Assembly (NCBI GenBank): GCA_016212525.1
Contig: JACRGD010000007.1
Span: 15,112 to 79,111 of the forward strand
Length of the DNA stretch: 64,000 nucleotides
Source of the DNA: Candidatus Micrarchaeota archaeon
GTDB lineage: Archaea; Micrarchaeota; Micrarchaeia; Anstonellales; Bilamarchaeaceae
Direction of reading: 5' to 3'
Part shown: one piece after another, positions 1,739-33,159 of the stretch
Layout of the letters: each line of letters opens with the position of its first letter
Numbering within the stretch: position 1 is the stretch's first letter
Program-made: the position numbers and the translations under genes
Notes under the pieces: model-generated
What the model saw: the letters and a program-made list of their open reading frames with translations, nothing else
What the model was told of the DNA's origin: nothing
Databases searched by the model: none

Positions 1739-1949
1739 TCAAGAACTAGCGGGAAACTTTTTCTTTAATACCATTAACGATAAATGCGGCACTAGTAAGA
1801 ACACAGAGGGGACATGGATGTGCAACTGAGCTAACGGCCCAGATCGCACCGATGGCAAGGCTCTCGTTCCCTTTTTTGATGAGGTTTTCCTTATTCACAT
1901 AGAAAATGAGTCTGAAAGAGAATAAAAATAAGATGGAAAATAAGTTTGA

Positions 1950-2125
1950 CCTTGCCGTTTTTTGCCGCTTTTCCGGCTTCATCTCGCGAAACCTGCTTTA
2001 GCACATGTAGCTTCGCAGACCTTCGCTCTGTTCAGGTCTGCTCGCGTCGCAAAACTAGTGCTTCGCTCAGCGTCGTCGTCCCTTCGGGACGACTCGCGCT
2101 TCCGCGGAAATGAGGTGTGCTGGTT
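1950..2125. repeat. GC-rich structured non-coding block of the GAGCGAAGC family (candidate ncRNA)
   Basis: about 60% GC island in AT-rich surroundings with no convincing ORF; minus strand reads CTGAGCGAAGCACT and CAGAGCGAAGGTCTGCGAAGCTACATG; a GUCGUCCC-UUCG-GGGACGAC tetraloop hairpin sits at ~2066-2085. Confidence 0.4.
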
Positions 2126-2170
2126 CTTCTTTATAAACAAGGCAAAAATAGTACTCTTTGGTGAAGAGAA

Positions 2171-2386
2171 ATGAAAGTTGAACAAAAGCTTGAATCGCTC
2201 ATGCAATATCGAAGTGAGTTGAGAGAGGATGACCGAAAGGTTTTGGATCGACTGATGAGCTTTGCCAGAGATCGGGTAAGAGCATGTGCAAAAGCAGACA
2301 ATTTGAGTGTCCTTGAATCGATGCTCCTTGCAATGGTCATAGAGCAGCAAAAAATTATAGAAGAAATACAGGTCCAAACCGCTTAG
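2171..2386 (+). CDS. hypothetical small protein
   Basis: 71-aa ORF immediately downstream of the GC-rich block; no recognisable motif. Confidence 0.3.
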   Translation: MKVEQKLESLMQYRSELREDDRKVLDRLMSFARDRVRACAKADNLSVLESMLLAMVIEQQKIIEEIQVQTA

Positions 2387-2484
2387 ATGAGCATTACACT
2401 TCTTGGTCAGGAGACAAATAGGTTGCCATAGGGGGTGCGCGGGACGGGAGACCCGCTACCCTCAAACCACAACAATAGGAATAG

Positions 2485-2844
2485 TTATTCAGACATCATC
2501 CCTAAAACAAACTGAATGAGAACAGGATGCTGAGCAGAGAGAACCTTGTCCATTTTGGCCTTAAGTACCTCGTCTTTTGAGTAGGCATGAAGAGCTTCCA
2601 GGATAGATCTTCGAGACTTAAGTGCATTAGATAGGTGAGTATTGACATCCTTGAACATATTGTCCATTTCAACGGCTTCTTTGCCTAAAGATGAGATATC
2701 GATAGTTTCACGTGGACCACCGCAGCAACCCCCGCCACCACAACCAGATGGAGAACATACATCAGAATCATCAGAACATTTATTAGCACAATTTTCATCA
2801 TCGTTGGAACAAGCCGAACCATCCTTACAACATTTACTTCCCAT
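2485..2844 (-). CDS. Cys-rich small protein, putative metal-binding
   Basis: 119-aa ORF; N-terminal third has 13 Cys (CCKDGSACS...CGGGGCCGG); last gene of the dtxR-ftr1 co-oriented cluster. Confidence 0.5.
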   Translation of the reverse strand: MGSKCCKDGSACSNDDENCANKCSDDSDVCSPSGCGGGGCCGGPRETIDISSLGKEAVEMDNMFKDVNTHLSNALKSRRSILEALHAYSKDEVLKAKMDKVLSAQHPVLIQFVLGMMSE

Positions 2845-2892
2845 AAAAATACCAGACTAGAAATAGAAGGAAATGTATTATAAACAGAAAAA

Positions 2893-3705
2893 TCAGGATT
2901 TGCTCCGATAAATCGCGTAGATAGTCAGAAGGTATCCGAAATAACTCAAAAGCTGTAGATCACTTGGATTTCCATCATAACCAATAAGACCCTTAAAGAT
3001 AGAACCAATAGGACCTTTTTCATGTAGCAAAGGATATGATCCATCTGAATTTTGTGGAGGATTGATGTCATATACATGTTCCACGTAGGTAGGAAGAATA
3101 TGAGCCTCCTGAAGTTCATGGATGCCTTGAGAGAAAAGGCCTGCAGCTAGCAAAATCAGAATAACAGTTGTGATCTTGAAAAATCTGCCAACATTGAAAT
3201 TTATTGCATATTCAAATATCAATACTCCTAAAACAATGGCAGCCACAGCGCCCATAAAACCTCCAACAAGAGAGATTGCACCAGTATTAACATAAATTCC
3301 GGCTAAAAAGAGAACGGATTCAACTCCCTCTCGAAGAGTAGACGTAAATGCGAGCAAAAAAAGCCCCAATGTTTCTTTTTTTTCGAGGGCCACCTTGACA
3401 TCCTTAGTAAGAGAGTCGACAACTTTTTTCTGACCCAGCATCCAAAGCACAAGCCAGCTAACAAGACCACTTGTGAGAATTAGAAAAAAACCTTCAAAAA
3501 GTTCTTCACTTGCACTAAAACCCCCCTGAACAAATTGAAAAATAAATGCAAGACCAATACTCGCAACCAGACCGGCCGCTACGCCTAACCAAACATGCTT
3601 TTCGTGATCCTCATTTTTTGTTTTGTGCAAATATGCAAGAATAATACTAACAACAAATGCAATCTCAAGACTTTCTCTAAATAGTACGATGAACTCAGCA
3701 AGCAT
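2893..3705 (-). CDS. FTR1-family high-affinity iron permease
   Basis: 270-aa polytopic membrane ORF with two REGxE-type motifs (FRESLE, LREGVE) diagnostic of FTR1/EfeU. Confidence 0.8.
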   Translation of the reverse strand: MLAEFIVLFRESLEIAFVVSIILAYLHKTKNEDHEKHVWLGVAAGLVASIGLAFIFQFVQGGFSASEELFEGFFLILTSGLVSWLVLWMLGQKKVVDSLTKDVKVALEKKETLGLFLLAFTSTLREGVESVLFLAGIYVNTGAISLVGGFMGAVAAIVLGVLIFEYAINFNVGRFFKITTVILILLAAGLFSQGIHELQEAHILPTYVEHVYDINPPQNSDGSYPLLHEKGPIGSIFKGLIGYDGNPSDLQLLSYFGYLLTIYAIYRSKS

Positions 3706-3742
3706 ATAAGATAACTAAACAGTTAGGACATTATAAGCAGTT

Positions 3743-3759
3743 ACCTAAATAAATTAGGT
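3743..3759. promoter_or_regulatory. candidate DtxR/MntR operator (ACCTAA-N5-TTAGGT inverted repeat)
   Basis: inverted repeat ACCTAAATAAATTAGGT about 40-55 bp upstream of the ftr1 start; half-sites resemble the TTAGG/CCTAA half-sites of DtxR-family boxes; a DtxR-family repressor is encoded immediately upstream. Confidence 0.4.
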
Positions 3760-3923
3760 TTTTAGAAAAAAACGAATATGTCAGACTCGACAAATCCGCA
3801 AATCTCTTAACTCTCCAAGCTCGACCGCCGCAGCACAGGTACGACTGTGTTCTGCGACTCCATTGACAGCATAAGAAAAAATAGAAATATCAGGATGAAA
3901 GAAAATGTTAAGACTCCCTGAGA

Positions 3924-4316
3924 TTAAGACTTTGTTTCTAATTTATTTACAAGATCGATGAGTTTGGAAACGGTTTCTTCGCTCAACTGATGCTCGAGAT
4001 AGCAGGCATCAAGATATGCAGTAGATTTGGAAACTCCAGCTATTTCAAAGAGCCGTAGGAAAACAAGATATCGCTTGCGAATGGAATCTGCCTTTTCTTT
4101 ACCATCAGAAGTAAGAGTTATCGCACCGCGCTTCTCGTAATTGATAAGGCCTGATTTCGAGAGTTTCTGGATCATTTGGGTAACACTGGGAGCAGAAACG
4201 CATAACGTTTTAGAGATATCACTAACCCGGGCATAACCTTTCTTATCGATTATCTCGGAAATTACACGAAGATAATTTTCAGATATTCGTGATATCGAAG
4301 CATCGGACACAGACAT
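3924..4316 (-). CDS. DtxR/MntR-family metal-dependent transcriptional repressor
   Basis: ORF 3924..4409; homology starts at internal Met (MSVSDASISRISENYLRVI, ~4316); winged HTH plus metal-binding and dimerisation region typical of the DtxR family. Confidence 0.75.
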   Translation of the reverse strand: MSVSDASISRISENYLRVISEIIDKKGYARVSDISKTLCVSAPSVTQMIQKLSKSGLINYEKRGAITLTSDGKEKADSIRKRYLVFLRLFEIAGVSKSTAYLDACYLEHQLSEETVSKLIDLVNKLETKS

Positions 4317-4441
4317 AGCAGATAATAATACTAACAAACAAGATATAAAGTCAGTCGAAAGGAGAAAGTAAACGCGGGATTTATAATCCAAAGGGCAGAT
4401 ATTAGTCACAGAAACAAGAAAATAACAAAATTCCTAGTTTT

Positions 4442-14110: not shown

Positions 14111-14863
14111 GTGGGCAAAACAAAAACAAGACCAGAATTAAGAGAGATTACACTCAGAGTCATAGAGGGGTTTAGAACCCAGATACCGGTACTAGATCTG
14201 ACAGTGAGTAGTAAAAAAGGCACTCGAAAAATCGAAAGAGAGGAAAAAGATAAGCTCGAAAAAGCGATAGAAACGGGCTGTCAAAAAGAGTTTCGGGGAA
14301 TAACTACAGAGATAAGTACACTAATAGCCAATGAATATGATGTAGGGGAAATTATCGTTCCACTCGTTAAGAGACTCAGAACAGAAACGGATCAAAGCAT
14401 AAGAAATCAAATTTTAATAAACCTCATCAAAATAGAGAGAACTGGCCACAACACCGGAATGGCAAGCGGAGACATTACAGAACTCATAAATGCATATGGA
14501 GAGGACACACGATATTTGGCAGTTAATTATTTTCTTGAAAGAGTTCGAAACGGACATAGAATAAACCTGCAGATCGAAGAACTTTGCATTGCGGCATTTG
14601 ACTTGTCTCACCAAATACGAGAAATAGCATTAGAAACTCTCAAAAGATATGGGTCGAGAGGCGCGTTTGAGAAACAGGAAATAGAAGACGCATTAGAAGA
14701 TCCAAGAGTACTTACTAAAAAGGACGAACTAGTCAAAAATATCAGAAATAGCATGGAACGCGATCCAAAAGACATCAAACCAGCAGAACTCCAACGAGTC
14801 ATAAAAGAAACAATAAAGGCGGAGACAGTAGGACGAATTGAAGAACTACTCGAGCGAGAATAA
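14111..14863 (+). CDS. hypothetical protein (possibly HEAT-like)
   Basis: 250-aa ORF; its stop codon lies inside the first unit of the 24-bp tandem array. Confidence 0.45.
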   Translation: MGKTKTRPELREITLRVIEGFRTQIPVLDLTVSSKKGTRKIEREEKDKLEKAIETGCQKEFRGITTEISTLIANEYDVGEIIVPLVKRLRTETDQSIRNQILINLIKIERTGHNTGMASGDITELINAYGEDTRYLAVNYFLERVRNGHRINLQIEELCIAAFDLSHQIREIALETLKRYGSRGAFEKQEIEDALEDPRVLTKKDELVKNIRNSMERDPKDIKPAELQRVIKETIKAETVGRIEELLERE

Positions 14864-14990
14864 ATCTCGCATACTTCGCGAGAATAAATCTCGCATACTT
14901 CGCGAGAATAAATCTCGCATACTTCGCGAGAATAAATCTCGCATACTTCGCGAGAATAAATCTCGCATACTTCGCGAGAATAAATCTCGC
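14855..14990. repeat. perfect 24-bp tandem repeat, 5 full units plus a 16-nt partial unit, made of alternating palindromes
   Basis: unit CGAGAATAAATCTCGCATACTTCG repeated without a single mismatch; arms TCTCGC and GCGAGA alternate with loops ATACTTC and ATAAA; independently visible as (ARFILAKY)x5 in the antisense ORF track. Confidence 0.9.
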
Positions 14991-15030: not shown

Positions 15031-15154
15031 AGCCCCCGGAGGGATTTGAACCCCCGGCCTCCTCCTAGCTCGATACTTTTTATAATAAGTTTTTGATTAA
15101 ACTTTTTCCTAAAAAGTTTACGAGAGAGGCGCTCTACCACTGAGCTACAGAGGC
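15031..15154 (-). tRNA. tRNA-Thr (anticodon CGU) with ~52-nt intron at position 37/38
   Basis: hand-folded: acceptor GCCTCTG/CGGGGGC, D-arm GCTC-AGTGGTA-GAGC, anticodon stem CCTCT/GGAGG with loop CTCGTA|A, T-arm GGGGG-TTCAAAT-CCCTC; intron begins with a 9-bp AAACTTTTT/AAAAAGTTT hairpin. Confidence 0.8.
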
Positions 15155-15289
15155 ATTGCTAATAGAAACAGCTTAAGTGAATTTAAAGATTGGTTTTGGT
15201 CAGATGGAACACGTTCCTAGGAAAAACAGAATCTGCAGTCGGAAGTTGTTTTTCTCGATATTGAATTCAATCACTTTAGACAGAATCAG

Positions 15290-15393
15290 CATTCGGTCTC
15301 CGGATCGCAAACTCAGGACTTTTGACCAAACCATTTACTCGCGACCGGAGCGAAGCGACGGGAAGCACAGGAGGCGAAGCAAAGTAATTGGAA
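15290..15393. repeat. GC-rich structured block in the tRNA-Gly/tRNA-Thr spacer (GAGCGAAGC family)
   Basis: GGAGCGAAGCGACGG and GGAGGCGAAGCAAAGTAA; long-range stem CTCCGGATCGC...GCGACCGGAG enclosing TTTTGACCAAACC, a motif that recurs twice near tRNA-Ser. Confidence 0.4.
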
Positions 15394-15467
15394 TGCGGTC
15401 GTCGGGATTTGAACCCGAGTTATGGGGTTGGAAACCCCAAGTCCTAACCAGGCTAGACTACAACCGC
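15394..15467 (-). tRNA. tRNA-Gly (anticodon UCC)
   Basis: hand-folded: acceptor GCGGTTG/CGACCGC, anticodon stem TGGGG/CCCCA with loop TTTCCAA, T-arm TCGGG-TTCAAAT-CCCGA, discriminator A; no intron. Confidence 0.85.
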
Positions 15468-17002: not shown

Positions 17003-17059
17003 AAAGAGGAATAGGAAAATAAGAGTAATAAAGAAATCGTTTTATTGACTAGAATAAAA

Positions 17060-17452
17060 AACCAATAAAGGTAGGCGAAGCAAAGTAAAGTGACTCCGAG
17101 GCTACGCGAGTCGACTAACCAGAGGAGATATTGACTAAGCAGATGTCTCAATTGTCATTTAGTAGGTCCTTGGATTTTTGACCAACCACTCGCCTAGCGA
17201 TCTGCAAAATCGCGACGGTTTAGCTACGCAGACATGAATGTCTGCTTGCGACTTTTGTAATAAGAGAAAAGAAGTCAAAAGTAATGTGACGCCACGCGAA
17301 ACGGCCTGAGCGAAGCAATGGACGCGAAGCTAAGCGAACGAGCGTATGACTAGGCGTTCTGAATGAGTTGGAGTGATGATTTGGTAATTCCTCAGGGCTT
17401 TGACCAACCCTTTTACTTTGCCATAATTTATGCTGAAGTCAAAGTAATGGGT
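17060..17452. repeat. about 400-nt GC-rich structured non-coding region between tRNA-Ser and tpiA (GAGCGAAGC family, multiple hairpins)
   Basis: contains GGCGAAGCAAAGTAA (identical 15-mer at 15370), CTGAGCGAAGCAATGGACGCGAAGCTAAGCG, two TTTGACCAACC copies, a perfect 8-bp hairpin GCAGACAT-GA-ATGTCTGC, hairpin GCGAT-CTGCAAA-ATCGC, and box C (GTGATGA) plus box D (CTGA) like elements; no ORF. Confidence 0.4.
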
Positions 17453-17587
17453 CGCCGACACCAGGATTTGAACCTGGAATCCACAAGGGATCAGTTCACC
17501 TGAACGTTTTTTAGTTCGTTTTTAGTCAAGCTTTTTCCTAAAAAACTTGTTCGAGACTGACGCACTACCGGGTTATGCGATGTCGGC
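17453..17587 (-). tRNA. tRNA-Ser (anticodon CGA) with ~54-nt intron at 37/38 and long variable arm
   Basis: hand-folded: acceptor GCCGACA/TGTCGGC, anticodon stem TCAGT/ACTGA with loop CTCGAA|A, 13-nt variable arm, T-arm CCAGG-TTCAAAT-CCTGG, discriminator G. Confidence 0.8.
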
Positions 17588-21647: not shown

Positions 21648-21773
21648 TTTATCTCCTCTTATTTTTAGTAAGTAGAGTTAGACAAGAAGGTATTAAAAAT
21701 AATAACAGAAACCACAGAAGAGATATAAAGTAAAATATAGTGGAACCACTACCAAAACAGAATGAACAAAGAG

Positions 21774-21848
21774 TAGCGGGGAGTAGATTTGAACTACCGG
21801 TCTCTGGGTTATGAGCCCAGCGGGAACTCCAAGCTTCCCTACCCCGCT
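21774..21848 (-). tRNA. initiator tRNA-Met (anticodon CAU)
   Basis: A1:U72 pair (AGCGGGG/CCCCGCT), anticodon stem CTGGG/CCCAG with three G:C pairs next to loop CTCATAA, T-arm GGTAG-TTCAAAT-CTACT; these are hallmarks of archaeal initiator tRNA. Confidence 0.85.
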
Positions 21849-29569: not shown

Positions 29570-29623
29570 TAATAAAAATCGCTTCGCTCTCAATTAAATC
29601 CATAGCTTCGCTCTGGCCTTAAT
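29570..29623. repeat. two direct copies of AGAGCGAAGC in the tRNA-Ala 3' trailer (GAGCGAAGC family)
   Basis: minus strand reads CCAGAGCGAAGCTATGG ... GAGAGCGAAGCGATTTT. Confidence 0.45.
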
Positions 29624-29695
29624 TGGACTCAGGGGGACTCGCACCCCCGGCCTCTCGGATGCAAACCGAGCGCTCTGCTGCTGAGCTATGAGCCC
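29624..29695 (-). tRNA. tRNA-Ala (anticodon UGC)
   Basis: acceptor GGGCTCA/TGAGTCC with the G3:U70 alanine identity pair, anticodon loop TTTGCAT, T-arm GGGGG-TGCGAGT-CCCCC (G at position 55 instead of the near-universal U), discriminator A. Confidence 0.75.
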
Positions 29696-29752
29696 ATTGA
29701 TACATGCCAGAAATAAATCTGAACAGATAAGTGGACAATAATAAACATAGAA

Positions 29753-30564: not shown

Positions 30565-31848
30565 ATGCAAGATTTCGATCGGGGAGAGCCAAGAAAATTT
30601 TTTGATAAGCGTGCGATGTTCCTTAAAAAATCCAAGGACACAGTAAGAGAAGCACTCAAAAGCAGAGATATGCTCCTTAGTGGAGTCACAAAAACGATTG
30701 TCGATCTGGACCAGATAATAAATATGCTCGGCGAACGATTGGAGCATTGGTACGAGATATATTTCCCGGAAATATACATGGAAGACAAGGTAAAATATGC
30801 CCAGGCAGTACTTGCGATAGACCGGCAGAATCCAAATGAAGAACAACTGTCAGCACTCTTTGGACCTAAAAAGGCACAGGAAATAATCGACAAATCGAAA
30901 ACAAGTCTTGGAGCCAATCTCGCGATCGAAGACTTGGAAAAATGCAGAGCGCTTGCAGACGAAATAATATCTATGAAAGAGCTCAAGAACAATCTCGAAG
31001 ACTACCAGAAAGACTTAGCTGGACAGATCTGTCCAAATTTAACCGCACTCGCAGGGGCAGAAATAGCAGCAAGAATGCTCGCGCACATTGGATCGCTCAA
31101 GAGACTCGCAATACTCCCGGCAAGCACATTGCAGGTCATCGGAGCCGAGAATTCATTATTTAAACACTTAAAAAATAGACGAATTCCTCCACCTAAGCAC
31201 GGAATTATTTTCCAACATCCAAAGATCTCATCTTCTCCAAAAGCAGTGCGCGGAAAGATTGCACGCGCACTCTCAAACAAGATGGCTCTTGCACTTAAGG
31301 CAGATGCATATACGAAGAACGATTTGAGCAAGATGTTAATTGAAGGATTCGAAAAGAGAGTCAGTCAGATAATGAAGGACTACGAACGAAACAAGAACAA
31401 GCCAAAGAAGTTCCCGGAACAACAGATGCAACCTCAAACACAGTACCGTGAAGATAGAGACGAACCACCACGGGAGAGAAGACCATTTCAACAAAATAAC
31501 AGACGCGACTTTGAAAGAGCTCCACCTAGAGAGGATCGTTATAGTGGAGATCGGGATAGAGCTCCGCCACGACCCCAACAATCTCAGTATCGGGATCGTG
31601 AAGGAGATCGGGAACGAAGACCATTCCCACCAAGTCGGGATCGATACTCGGCCCCTGCACCAGCTCAGTCATCATCTCAATATCGAGATCGCAGAGAAGA
31701 CACACGTGAACGGGGATCTTATCCGCCACAGAATCGGGATCGCGGCTCACCATATGGACGCGACCGAGATGATTCGGATAATCGATCAGGCGGAAGTTAC
31801 AGTGGCAGACGAAGAGACAACAGAAGACGAGATCGACCAAGATACTAG
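30565..31848 (+). CDS. nop5: Nop5/Nop56 C/D box RNP protein with long RD/RE-rich C-terminal tail
   Basis: 427 aa; Nop domain (ICPNLTALAGAEIAARMLAHIGSLKRLAILPASTLQVIGAE); the last ~150 aa are low-complexity R/D/E/Y/P/S-rich repeats (YRDRE, RDR, DRY). Confidence 0.85.
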   Translation: MQDFDRGEPRKFFDKRAMFLKKSKDTVREALKSRDMLLSGVTKTIVDLDQIINMLGERLEHWYEIYFPEIYMEDKVKYAQAVLAIDRQNPNEEQLSALFGPKKAQEIIDKSKTSLGANLAIEDLEKCRALADEIISMKELKNNLEDYQKDLAGQICPNLTALAGAEIAARMLAHIGSLKRLAILPASTLQVIGAENSLFKHLKNRRIPPPKHGIIFQHPKISSSPKAVRGKIARALSNKMALALKADAYTKNDLSKMLIEGFEKRVSQIMKDYERNKNKPKKFPEQQMQPQTQYREDRDEPPRERRPFQQNNRRDFERAPPREDRYSGDRDRAPPRPQQSQYRDREGDRERRPFPPSRDRYSAPAPAQSSSQYRDRREDTRERGSYPPQNRDRGSPYGRDRDDSDNRSGGSYSGRRRDNRRRDRPRY

Positions 31849-32964: not shown

Positions 32965-33078
32965 TTAAGGGGGGATGAGCTAACCTGGTATGCTGCTAGC
33001 TTTGGGACGCAAGCCGGTCTTTAGATCGGCGAAGCTGCAAAAGAGCTAGTTGTCTGTGTTCAAATCACAGTCCCCCCA
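32965..33078 (+). tRNA. tRNA-Pro (anticodon UGG) with ~37-nt intron at 37/38
   Basis: acceptor GGGGGGA/TCCCCCC, anticodon stem CTAGC/GCTAG with loop TTTGGG|A, T-arm CTGTG-TTCAAAT-CACAG, discriminator A; the intron contains GATCGGCGAAGCTGC; coordinates uncertain by ±4 nt. Confidence 0.75.
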
Positions 33079-33124
33079 ATCTTCTTATGAAAAACAAAAC
33101 CTTCGCGACCCTTCGAGATCGCTC

Positions 33125-33159
33125 GGTGTGTCTGTGTTCAAATCACAGTCCCCCCAATC
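33125..33159 (+). repeat. 31-bp direct duplicate of the tRNA-Pro 3' end (T-arm plus acceptor), att-site-like
   Basis: TGTCTGTGTTCAAATCACAGTCCCCCCAATC occurs at the tRNA 3' end and again ~78 bp downstream; visible as SVFKSQSPQS twice in ORF 33050..33598. Confidence 0.8.

Follow-up and report, generated by a model that had tools for sequence, protein, structure and literature searches.

The blocks of hairpin-bearing spacer DNA in this archaeal window are, on balance, probably a mosaic of short DNA repeat modules that form hairpins and are specific to this lineage, REP/BIME- or MITE-like in character. The strings that recur among them are real, and they look like short hairpin-forming DNA repeats and not like a conserved structured RNA family. 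DNA repeats fit the observations better, since the blocks were gained recently, carry their modules in mosaic order and in both orientations, show no folding excess in blocks B to D and have no match in Rfam. The window, i.e., the whole 64-kb stretch of DNA that was analyzed, belongs to a DPANN archaeon (Candidatus Micrarchaeota archaeon; locus tags HY990_) and has 41.7% GC; together with a further 8 kb (L011) it makes up the DNA that was inspected, the genome measuring at least 377 kb. Among its housekeeping genes are those for MCM, both primase subunits, LeuRS, Trm5, Nop5 (30565-31848) and tpiA. The tRNA genes on the minus strand are tRNA-Thr(CGU) (15031-15154, with a 55-nt intron), tRNA-Gly (15394-15467), tRNA-Ser(CGA) (17453-17587, with a 56-nt intron), tRNA-Met (21773-21848) and tRNA-Ala (29623-29696), while tRNA-Pro(UGG) on the plus strand (32969-33078, intron of about 37 nt) was missed by the detectors and read by eye. 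Partner halves of split or permuted tRNAs were not found within the window.

The interior of block A spans 1952-2100 (minus strand). Block B is the 239-nt spacer between tRNA-Gly and tRNA-Thr (15155-15393, plus strand), block C the spacer between tRNA-Ser and tpiA (17055-17452, plus strand) and block D the tRNA-Ala trailer (29573-29620, minus strand), each strand being the one on which GCGAAGC is read. The window holds 15 copies of this heptamer instead of the expected 7.3, and none of 100 shuffles reaches 15; nine of the copies lie within blocks A to D and a tenth in the tRNA-Pro intron. When every block was shuffled separately on its own dinucleotide content, the nine copies compared with 0.36 expected (maximum 3 in 2000 shuffles) and the 9-mer GAGCGAAGC was found 5 times against 0.04 expected. 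The motif enrichment is thus real after control for local composition, as the sequence-only reading had proposed from shared motifs. The longer shared strings quoted there are present as well: the 16-mer AGGCGAAGCAAAGTAA at two sites (15372-15387 and 17073-17088) and GCGAAGCTA at three (2008-2016, minus; 17324-17332, plus; 29603-29611, minus). The AT-rich background described at the outset was overstated given the GC content of the window, other intergenic DNA having 35.5% GC, and block A alone is clearly GC-rich (56%), the values for B, C and D being 43%, 44% and 36%, respectively, so that the GC-rich label holds for block A and fails for the others.

The blocks resemble one another only in modules of 9-35 nt. 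The first recurring module is a hairpin of about 17-24 nt, CC-N-GA-GC-GAA-GC-N-A-N-GG, found in the Gly trailer at 15341-15364 (plus), in the Ser spacer at 17301-17324 (plus) and in the Ala trailer at 29597-29620 (minus), where a second, weaker copy lies at 29573-29596. In the alignment the core extends beyond the 9-mer as GRCC-N-GAGCGAAGC-N-A-Y-GGR, and the shared context reaches 20-24 nt in the four copies. The potential 17-nt hairpin has a conserved G.A mismatch and one A-U to G-C exchange, and its pairing is kept in 90% of cells across the four copies as against 10-45% in slid controls. Compensatory changes, assessed on four sequences only, comprise 2 pairs changed on both sides, which 33 of 500 shuffles also reach. 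A covariance model of the four copies of the 24-nt hairpin, scanned over the window, matched its own four training copies, the next match having E = 1, and did not recover block A (match at E = 5.8).

The second module is a hairpin, TAGCTNCGCAGAC...GTCTGCTNGCG, which blocks A and C carry in the same orientation as TAGCT-N-CGCAGAC...GTCTGCT-N-GCG; 26 of 34 aligned positions match, with a C-G to A-U exchange in the stem, and in block C the hairpin lies at 17221-17250 (GCAGACAT/ATGTCTGC). Although this GCAGAC module is co-oriented, GAGCGAAGC lies on opposite strands in A and C. The third module consists of the end motifs TTACTTTG / GGTTGGTCAAA of blocks B and C, which on the tRNA strand open with ...TTAC-TTTG... 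and close with GGTTGGTCAAA and delimit three and a half units of 49-108 nt with unrelated interiors. Besides its hairpin motif and a second GCGAAGC 24 nt downstream (15374-15380), block B has TTTGACCAA (15321-15329) and, read on the minus strand, TTACTTTG (15380-15387). In block C, GCGAAGC is found at 17075, 17310 and 17324 and TTTGACCAA at 17177 and 17399, while the minus strand has TTACTTTK three times (17081, 17277 and 17440). As the shared modules vary in order and orientation, the blocks are mosaics, and no single architecture was copied among them.

This context of 20-24 nt common to four copies, the further modules shared between blocks and the enrichment that persists after local dinucleotide shuffling (9 versus 0.36 and 5 versus 0.04) make it very improbable that the blocks are a matter of chance or composition, i.e., GC-rich spacers in which a favored mini-hairpin GC-GAA-GC arose independently. 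That explanation would account for the same capped hairpin in an unrelated CPR-like bacterium and in a contig of 74% GC (see below), and for the GCGAAGC of the tRNA-Pro intron, which comes down to a single base difference. The oligonucleotide d(GCGAAGC) is an extraordinarily stable DNA mini-hairpin, and the repeats have precisely that heptamer as their invariant core; its stability, however, is a biophysical property and not a genetic element. Mini-hairpin stability may therefore explain the reuse of the cap and the convergent finds, but not the distribution at tRNA flanks. A literature search for GCGAAGC in archaea returned primers only, and a biosensor paper on such stable hairpins contains the sequence (PMC10527192).

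Only block A folds better than its shuffles (z = -4.3 on the minus strand), while pieces of blocks B, C and D gave z-scores from +0.5 to -1.9 on either strand; the earlier description of the blocks as hairpin-dense therefore stands for A and not for B, C and D. A comparison with Rfam at gathering and at permissive thresholds, SRP RNA, RNase P RNA, 5S rRNA, C/D and H/ACA sRNAs and Hgc RNAs included, matched the tRNAs alone and no block, the best block scores (E 0.6-7) lying far below the gathering score. These results bear on the possibility that the blocks are structured ncRNA genes of one family, or processing elements of pre-tRNAs, with an GAGCGAAGC RNA motif at their center, including variants in which the motif is a K-turn/C-box-like protein-binding site or the blocks are C/D box sRNAs. 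Such a family could claim the G.A mismatch kept in the 17-nt hairpin with its A-U to G-C exchange, the K-loop-like GA...GA at the base of the 2015-2041 loop in block A, and the Nop5 gene in the window. It could also claim a C-box-like layout at 17359-17409 (plus), GUUGG-AGU-GAUGA ... UUGA-CCAAC, which combines a C box (GUGAUGA), a 5-bp terminal stem and UUGA where a D box would have CUGA, with weak snoRNA-model matches at E of about 5. Yet this layout has no C'/D' pair and just 20 nt between its boxes, the covariation comes from four sequences and is equaled in the shuffles mentioned above, and neither module order nor orientation to the tRNAs is conserved. Together with the negative Rfam result, the lack of folding excess in B, C and D, and the absence of the blocks from the nearest relatives, this makes an RNA family, the first of the explanations originally offered, quite improbable.

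The association with tRNA genes proved stronger than first stated. Of the six tRNA genes, five have GCGAAG in their 3' flank, compared with a single copy in some 5 kb of intergenic DNA elsewhere; the five include, beyond the sites first noted, the trailers of tRNA-Pro and of tRNA-Thr, the latter with five copies in a tandem array. The motif lies on the tRNA strand at Thr and Ala and on the opposite strand at Gly, Ser and the Pro trailer, in agreement with the two orientations noted before. Because the motif strand is mixed relative to the tRNAs, a processing element of tRNA precursors is unlikely.

The array in the tRNA-Thr trailer (14854-14990, minus strand) is a perfect 24-nt tandem repeat of 5.7 copies. 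Its unit on the tRNA strand, GCGAAGTATGCGAGATTTATTCTC, folds into a hairpin with a U-rich tail behind it, and the units score as hairpin-plus-U, terminator-like sites on that strand. By eye the unit resembles that of the Ala trailer (GCGAAG-TATG-CGA-GATTTATT versus GCGAAGC-TATG-GATTTAATT), where block D holds its two hairpin copies 24 nt apart, with T5 after the second one on the tRNA strand. In the Gly trailer and in the Ala trailer alike, the second GCGAAGC lies exactly 24 nt downstream, and 24 nt is also the period of the Thr array. Both the perfect array and this spacing speak for local amplification and count in favor of the repeat reading.

Some copies probably serve as 3'-end hairpins, to judge from their position and tails. 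The Thr-array units and the second Ala hairpin resemble hairpin plus oligo-U signals in being GC-clamped, in having U-rich tails and in lying on the tRNA strand, and comparable cases are the tRNA-Ser trailer in the distant relative L009 (GGCCGCUUCGCGGCC followed by U5) and a unit of the CPR-like bacterium that lies between a promoter and rpoB and ends in a U-tract. The Gly and Ser blocks differ from such signals, as they have the motif on the other strand and no U-tract, and there is no obvious use for five tandem terminators. Archaeal termination is generally ascribed to oligo-T alone. A module on the tRNA strand with a U-tract behind it, as in the Thr array and the Ala trailer, would probably act as a 3'-end or terminator hairpin, and this role would be a by-product and not the reason for the existence of the family.

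The relatives found through tpiA, L009 being one of them, have no more than 68% identity and 47-58% GC and were too remote for comparison, and closer ones were found by means of the 50-aa protein encoded next to block A and an MscS-like protein. In L023 (36% GC), whose MCM is 78.6% identical at the amino acid level, the gene order is preserved as SOD, DoxX, flavodoxin-like, 50-aa, DUF8156, FTR1, DtxR-like, MCM, SPP, an extra gene and Trm5. The 50-aa gene is co-oriented there with its neighbors and separated from the next gene by 70 nt. The alignment between the window and L023 begins at about 2101 and runs rightwards, covering CCGCGGAAATGA, the TATA box, the Shine-Dalgarno sequence and the ATG; since it starts only at 2101, the DNA at about 1899-2100, an AT-rich promoter stretch plus block A, is new. 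This new DNA lies at the junction of the inverted 50-aa gene.

At the tRNA-Gly locus, an oligo-T trailer comes straight after tRNA-Gly in L026 (MscS-like protein 78% identical), which has neither tRNA-Thr nor block B, and in L033 (80% identical via the MscS-like protein) the tRNA-Gly promoter is visibly conserved over about 27 nt by eye. In L009 the Gly-Thr spacer measures 21 nt and the tRNA-Thr has no intron. The tRNA-Ser gene is divergent from tpiA in L033, L007 and L009, with spacers of 44 nt (L033) to about 105 nt; compared with these sequences, tRNA-Ser is inverted in the window and a 450-nt stretch containing block C is new. The gene order in L034 is different, and this relative was uninformative. 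In L009, tRNA-Ser is adjoined by an GGCCGCGAAGCGGCC hairpin, a point against the repeat reading, as it hints that a trailer hairpin of this kind may be older and functional at the tRNA-Ser locus. The blocks are absent from the orthologous sites in L023, L026, L033 and L009, and by this absence all blocks that could be checked are recent, lineage-specific gains, two of them at small inversions. Nothing convincing was found in a search for inverted repeats at the inversion boundaries.

Block A is the most stable instance among the blocks and consists of new DNA that leads from the inverted 50-aa gene to the conserved promoter of its neighbor. On the minus strand it carries GAGCGAAGC at 2060-2068, GAGCGAAGG at 2020-2028 and GCGAAGCTA at the position given above, together with two perfect 8-bp hairpins, at 2075-2093 (GAA/UUC loop) and at 2015-2041. 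The segment 1972-2116 has a predicted folding energy of -60.8 kcal/mol on this strand, and none of 200 shuffles was as stable. A predicted closing helix of 13 bp (1979-2113) pairs 2113-2107 and 2105-2100 with 1991-1979; its two G.U pairs on the minus strand correspond to A.C mismatches on the plus strand, and its arm at 2100-2113 is ancestral sequence common to L023. Counter to the repeat reading, the folding excess and the G.U pairs confined to one strand are as would be expected of an RNA.

Block A is accordingly the best RNA candidate among the blocks. Taken alone it could be an independent structured RNA of about 140-180 nt, or a cis-acting leader, on the minus strand, with a function unrelated to the tRNA-flank blocks, and would share with them no more than short hairpin-cap motifs. 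Besides the stability and the closing helix, a minus-strand TATA-like box about 25-30 nt upstream, T-runs downstream (1923-1940) and the lack of a conserved open reading frame across the block point in this direction. The TATA box TTTATAAA at 2130-2137, however, is covered by the alignment with L023 and hence belongs to the plus-strand gene, a 71-aa DUF8156-like gene at 2171-2386 whose promoter it marks; being conserved there, it is weak evidence for a minus-strand transcript of block A. In addition, folding is good on the plus strand too (z = -2.9), which is to be expected of palindrome-rich DNA in general, the block has no demonstrable promoter to itself and no Rfam match, and it is missing from the syntenic loci of L023, L024 and L025 and also from L012 and L021. 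The gene adjoining block A is a real gene for a 50-aa CPLC-motif protein (HY990_02115, 1746-1898, minus strand), inverted relative to L023, L024 and L025, and since it has its own well-placed TATA box at about 1922-1929, it needs no leader. We therefore consider an independent RNA unlikely.

Several other identities of this region were rejected. A riboswitch or leader of a 78-aa open reading frame does not apply, as the real gene is the 50-aa one with its own TATA box. An H/ACA RNA was dismissed by inspection and by Rfam, the ACA lying just 6 nt from the upper stem, and so were SRP RNA, RNase P RNA and 5S rRNA. A resemblance to the 5' end of a tRNA, GGGCCGTTAGCTCAGTTG at 1824-1841 (minus), sits within the conserved 50-aa gene and is by this position a chance resemblance.

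The tRNA-Pro locus yielded two separate results. The intron (33003-33045, plus strand), which contains GGCGAAGC and had been counted as a member of the family, has an ortholog in L026 with compensatory stem differences and with GCGTAGC, one base different, in place of the GCGAAGC of the window. The intron is therefore no family member, and the suggestion that a mobile element targets introns is refuted with it. The trailer (33079-33159, plus strand) holds a 47-nt insert, with CGCGAAGG on the minus strand, and after it the final 28 nt of the tRNA in a second, exact copy; with 3 following bases the duplication amounts to 31 nt (33051-33081 = 33129-33159). Both the insert and the duplication are missing from L026.

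An exact 31-nt direct duplication flanking a 47-nt insert, in a place where a relative has none, is a classic footprint, and tRNA-Pro carries a clear recombinase scar in it; the blocks in general could likewise have been left behind by elements that were integrated site-specifically at tRNA genes and later excised. The 9-mers would then be leftover recombinase-binding (arm-type) sites and the small inversions products of the same recombinase. The abutment of blocks on tRNA 3' ends, the two small inversions that adjoin blocks (at tRNA-Ser and at the 50-aa gene) and the occurrence of the motif in both orientations are in line with such scars. No duplicated tRNA 3' ends were found around the Gly, Ser, Ala or Thr blocks, though, block A has no adjoining tRNA, no integrase gene was seen in the window, and plasmid and phage collections and viral contigs gave no match, which leaves scars an improbable general explanation of the blocks. 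Integron attC sites were rejected, the R''/R' core sites being absent.

The repeats were also sought outside the window. Scans of viral contigs with two module patterns gave 0 matches, and BLAST of the blocks against the loci of the relatives, plasmids and phages returned nothing significant. A strict 36-nt pattern that fits the Gly and Ala copies, with roughly 0.1 chance matches expected, was scanned on JGI metagenome contigs and gave 7 matches at two loci. One is a 45-nt two-hairpin unit of an AT-rich CPR-like bacterium, located between a sigma-70-like promoter and rpoB, which ends in a U-tract and is present in 1 to 3 copies among strains; the other lies on the contig of 74% GC, where a chance match is much likelier. 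As neither locus is archaeal or tRNA-linked, the GC-GAA-GC-capped hairpin flanked by GA/GA is probably a reusable, convergent building block. Units of this kind expand via tandem duplication, and the analogous CPR-like unit, with one versus three copies among strains, supports local amplification in the repeat reading.

REP elements are repeats tagged by GTAG or CGTC (PMC3733652), and REPINs are among the REP-type systems (PMC3116915). The modules described here resemble REP/BIME sequences in being short imperfect palindromes of about 20-40 nt that are exclusively intergenic, often at gene 3' ends, that form mosaic clusters in both orientations and vary between related genomes, and that are able to act as terminator or RNA-stabilizing hairpins. 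They differ in a core copy number that looks low (4 in 64 kb, with the 64-kb window and 8 kb read), in their host, a DPANN archaeon, in a strong bias to tRNA 3' flanks, and in having no consistent tag: GTAG occurs 4 nt before the 2015-2041 palindrome, CTAC before the palindrome of block C, and CGTC adjoins three hairpins, but the four core hairpins have no tag. Genes for a transposase, an integrase or a RAYT were not found among the 34 window proteins scanned against Pfam. Since the core copies are few (four in 64 kb) and diverged, we infer mobility and do not see it directly.

With MITEs and the IS200/IS605-derived PATEs the blocks share the character of small, non-coding, lineage-specific insertions, with variable interiors between conserved ends and either orientation possible. 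In blocks B and C, three units begin directly behind TTAC and have TCAA at their end, these two being the cleavage tetranucleotides of IS608. In contrast to these elements, there are no conserved subterminal hairpins and no TnpA/TnpB nearby, the unit interiors of 49-108 nt are unrelated, and blocks A and D lack the TTAC/TCAA ends. The unit lengths are dissimilar (49, 67 and 108 nt), and a search for terminal inverted repeats with target-site duplications found none. Of the three explanations offered initially, a MITE-like element comes closest, though without the classical hallmarks: recent gain, both orientations and location at tRNA flanks agree with it, whereas terminal inverted repeats with target-site duplications and near-identical copies are lacking. 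As terminal inverted repeats with target-site duplications are lacking, and as the genome-wide copy number and the RAYT gene that mark REP elements could be looked for only in the DNA that was read, we file the blocks as resembling those elements and not as proven members.

A bolder version of the repeat reading, to which we give a small chance, is that the blocks are active, undescribed, tiny non-autonomous hairpin elements inserting preferentially just 3' of tRNA genes or other stem-loops and also driving the inversions and arrays. They would perhaps insert as single-stranded DNA in an IS200/IS605- or REP-like manner, after TTAC and ending in TCAA. The comparison with relatives shows that the modules were gained recently in this Micrarchaeota lineage and that they lie at tRNA 3' flanks and at the junctions of two small inversions. 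In the mosaic repeat reading that we prefer, their spread between loci would have occurred by a DNA-level process, e.g., small non-autonomous transposition, recombination scars or templated insertion, and slippage would have amplified them locally into arrays with a 24-nt period.

If this reading is true, annotators should be cautious, because in reduced DPANN genomes GC-richer hairpin spacers beside tRNA genes can be young repeat DNA and not hidden RNA genes. The comparison also documents fast remodeling around tRNA genes in one Micrarchaeota lineage, with a spacer expanded from 21 to 239 nt, two small inversions, a 24-nt array and the gain of an intron. If the elements are mobile and specific for tRNA flanks, they would represent a modestly interesting new class of archaeal repeats.

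Two small stretches of the window have been inverted in place in comparison with its closest relatives, namely the 50-aa CPLC gene (1746-1898, minus strand) and tRNA-Ser (17453-17587, minus strand). In the three closer relatives found via the former (L023-L025), this gene runs in the same direction as the flavodoxin-like gene, while tRNA-Ser and tpiA are divergent in L033, a closer relative found via the MscS-like protein, and in the distant tpiA relatives L007 and L009. Each inversion is bordered on one side by new, hairpin-rich DNA. The same organism is also represented by an independent Logan assembly (L011), which matches the window identically across 2036 nt, and its position 1 corresponds to window position 2036, placing the break exactly within the palindrome 2015-2041 of the hairpin-repeat block at 1950-2125. 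Most likely the assembler produced this break as an artefact of the inverted repeat.

The 50-aa CPLC protein is encoded together with an FTR1 iron permease and a DtxR-family repressor, and the region 1746-4409 is a metal-homeostasis neighbourhood. At two other loci (L012 and L021), the gene adjoins NikR and a Zip transporter.

Two C/D-box-like candidates were identified on the plus strand. The first (17359-17409) contains GUGAUGA and UUGA with a terminal stem of 5 bp, and the second (1872-1917) contains UGAUGA and CUGA with a stem of 6 bp. Neither is long enough to hold two guides, and their Rfam matches are weak (E ~5-7 only). A Nop5 gene also lies within the window (30565-31848).

In the spacer that separates the 3' end of tRNA-Thr from the end of a 250-aa gene, a 24-nt unit is perfectly repeated in tandem in 5.7 copies (14854-14990), each unit forming, on the tRNA strand, a terminator-like hairpin followed by UUUAUU. 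Hairpin units were also found in the rpoB 5' leader of a CPR-like bacterium (L014, L015, L017, L019 and L020; e.g. L017 6053-6317), where a two-hairpin unit of 45 nt, made up of CCCGAGCGAAGCGAAGGG and GATGAA..TTCATC, is enclosed in a longer stem and followed by a U-tract. It is present in one or three copies depending on the strain and may serve as an attenuator or terminator that varies between strains.

The 3' end of tRNA-Pro with 3 nt of flank is exactly duplicated as a 31-nt direct repeat (33051-33081 and 33129-33159) enclosing a 47-nt insert. The duplication is missing in the closer relative L026 and looks like an integration scar; a spare 3' half is less likely.

The AT-rich introns of tRNA-Thr (15067-15121) and tRNA-Ser (17497-17552) share an identical 14-mer and are 78% identical over 41 nt, a part that includes the hairpin CTTTTT-AGG-AAAAAG. 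Judged by this similarity, the two introns are related to each other. tRNA-Thr is intronless in L009 and L007, as is tRNA-Ser in L007, while the tRNA-Ser intron of L009 differs by eye from that of the window. Since the two introns are alike and are absent or different in these relatives, their sequences suggest that they were gained recently or copied from one tRNA gene to another.
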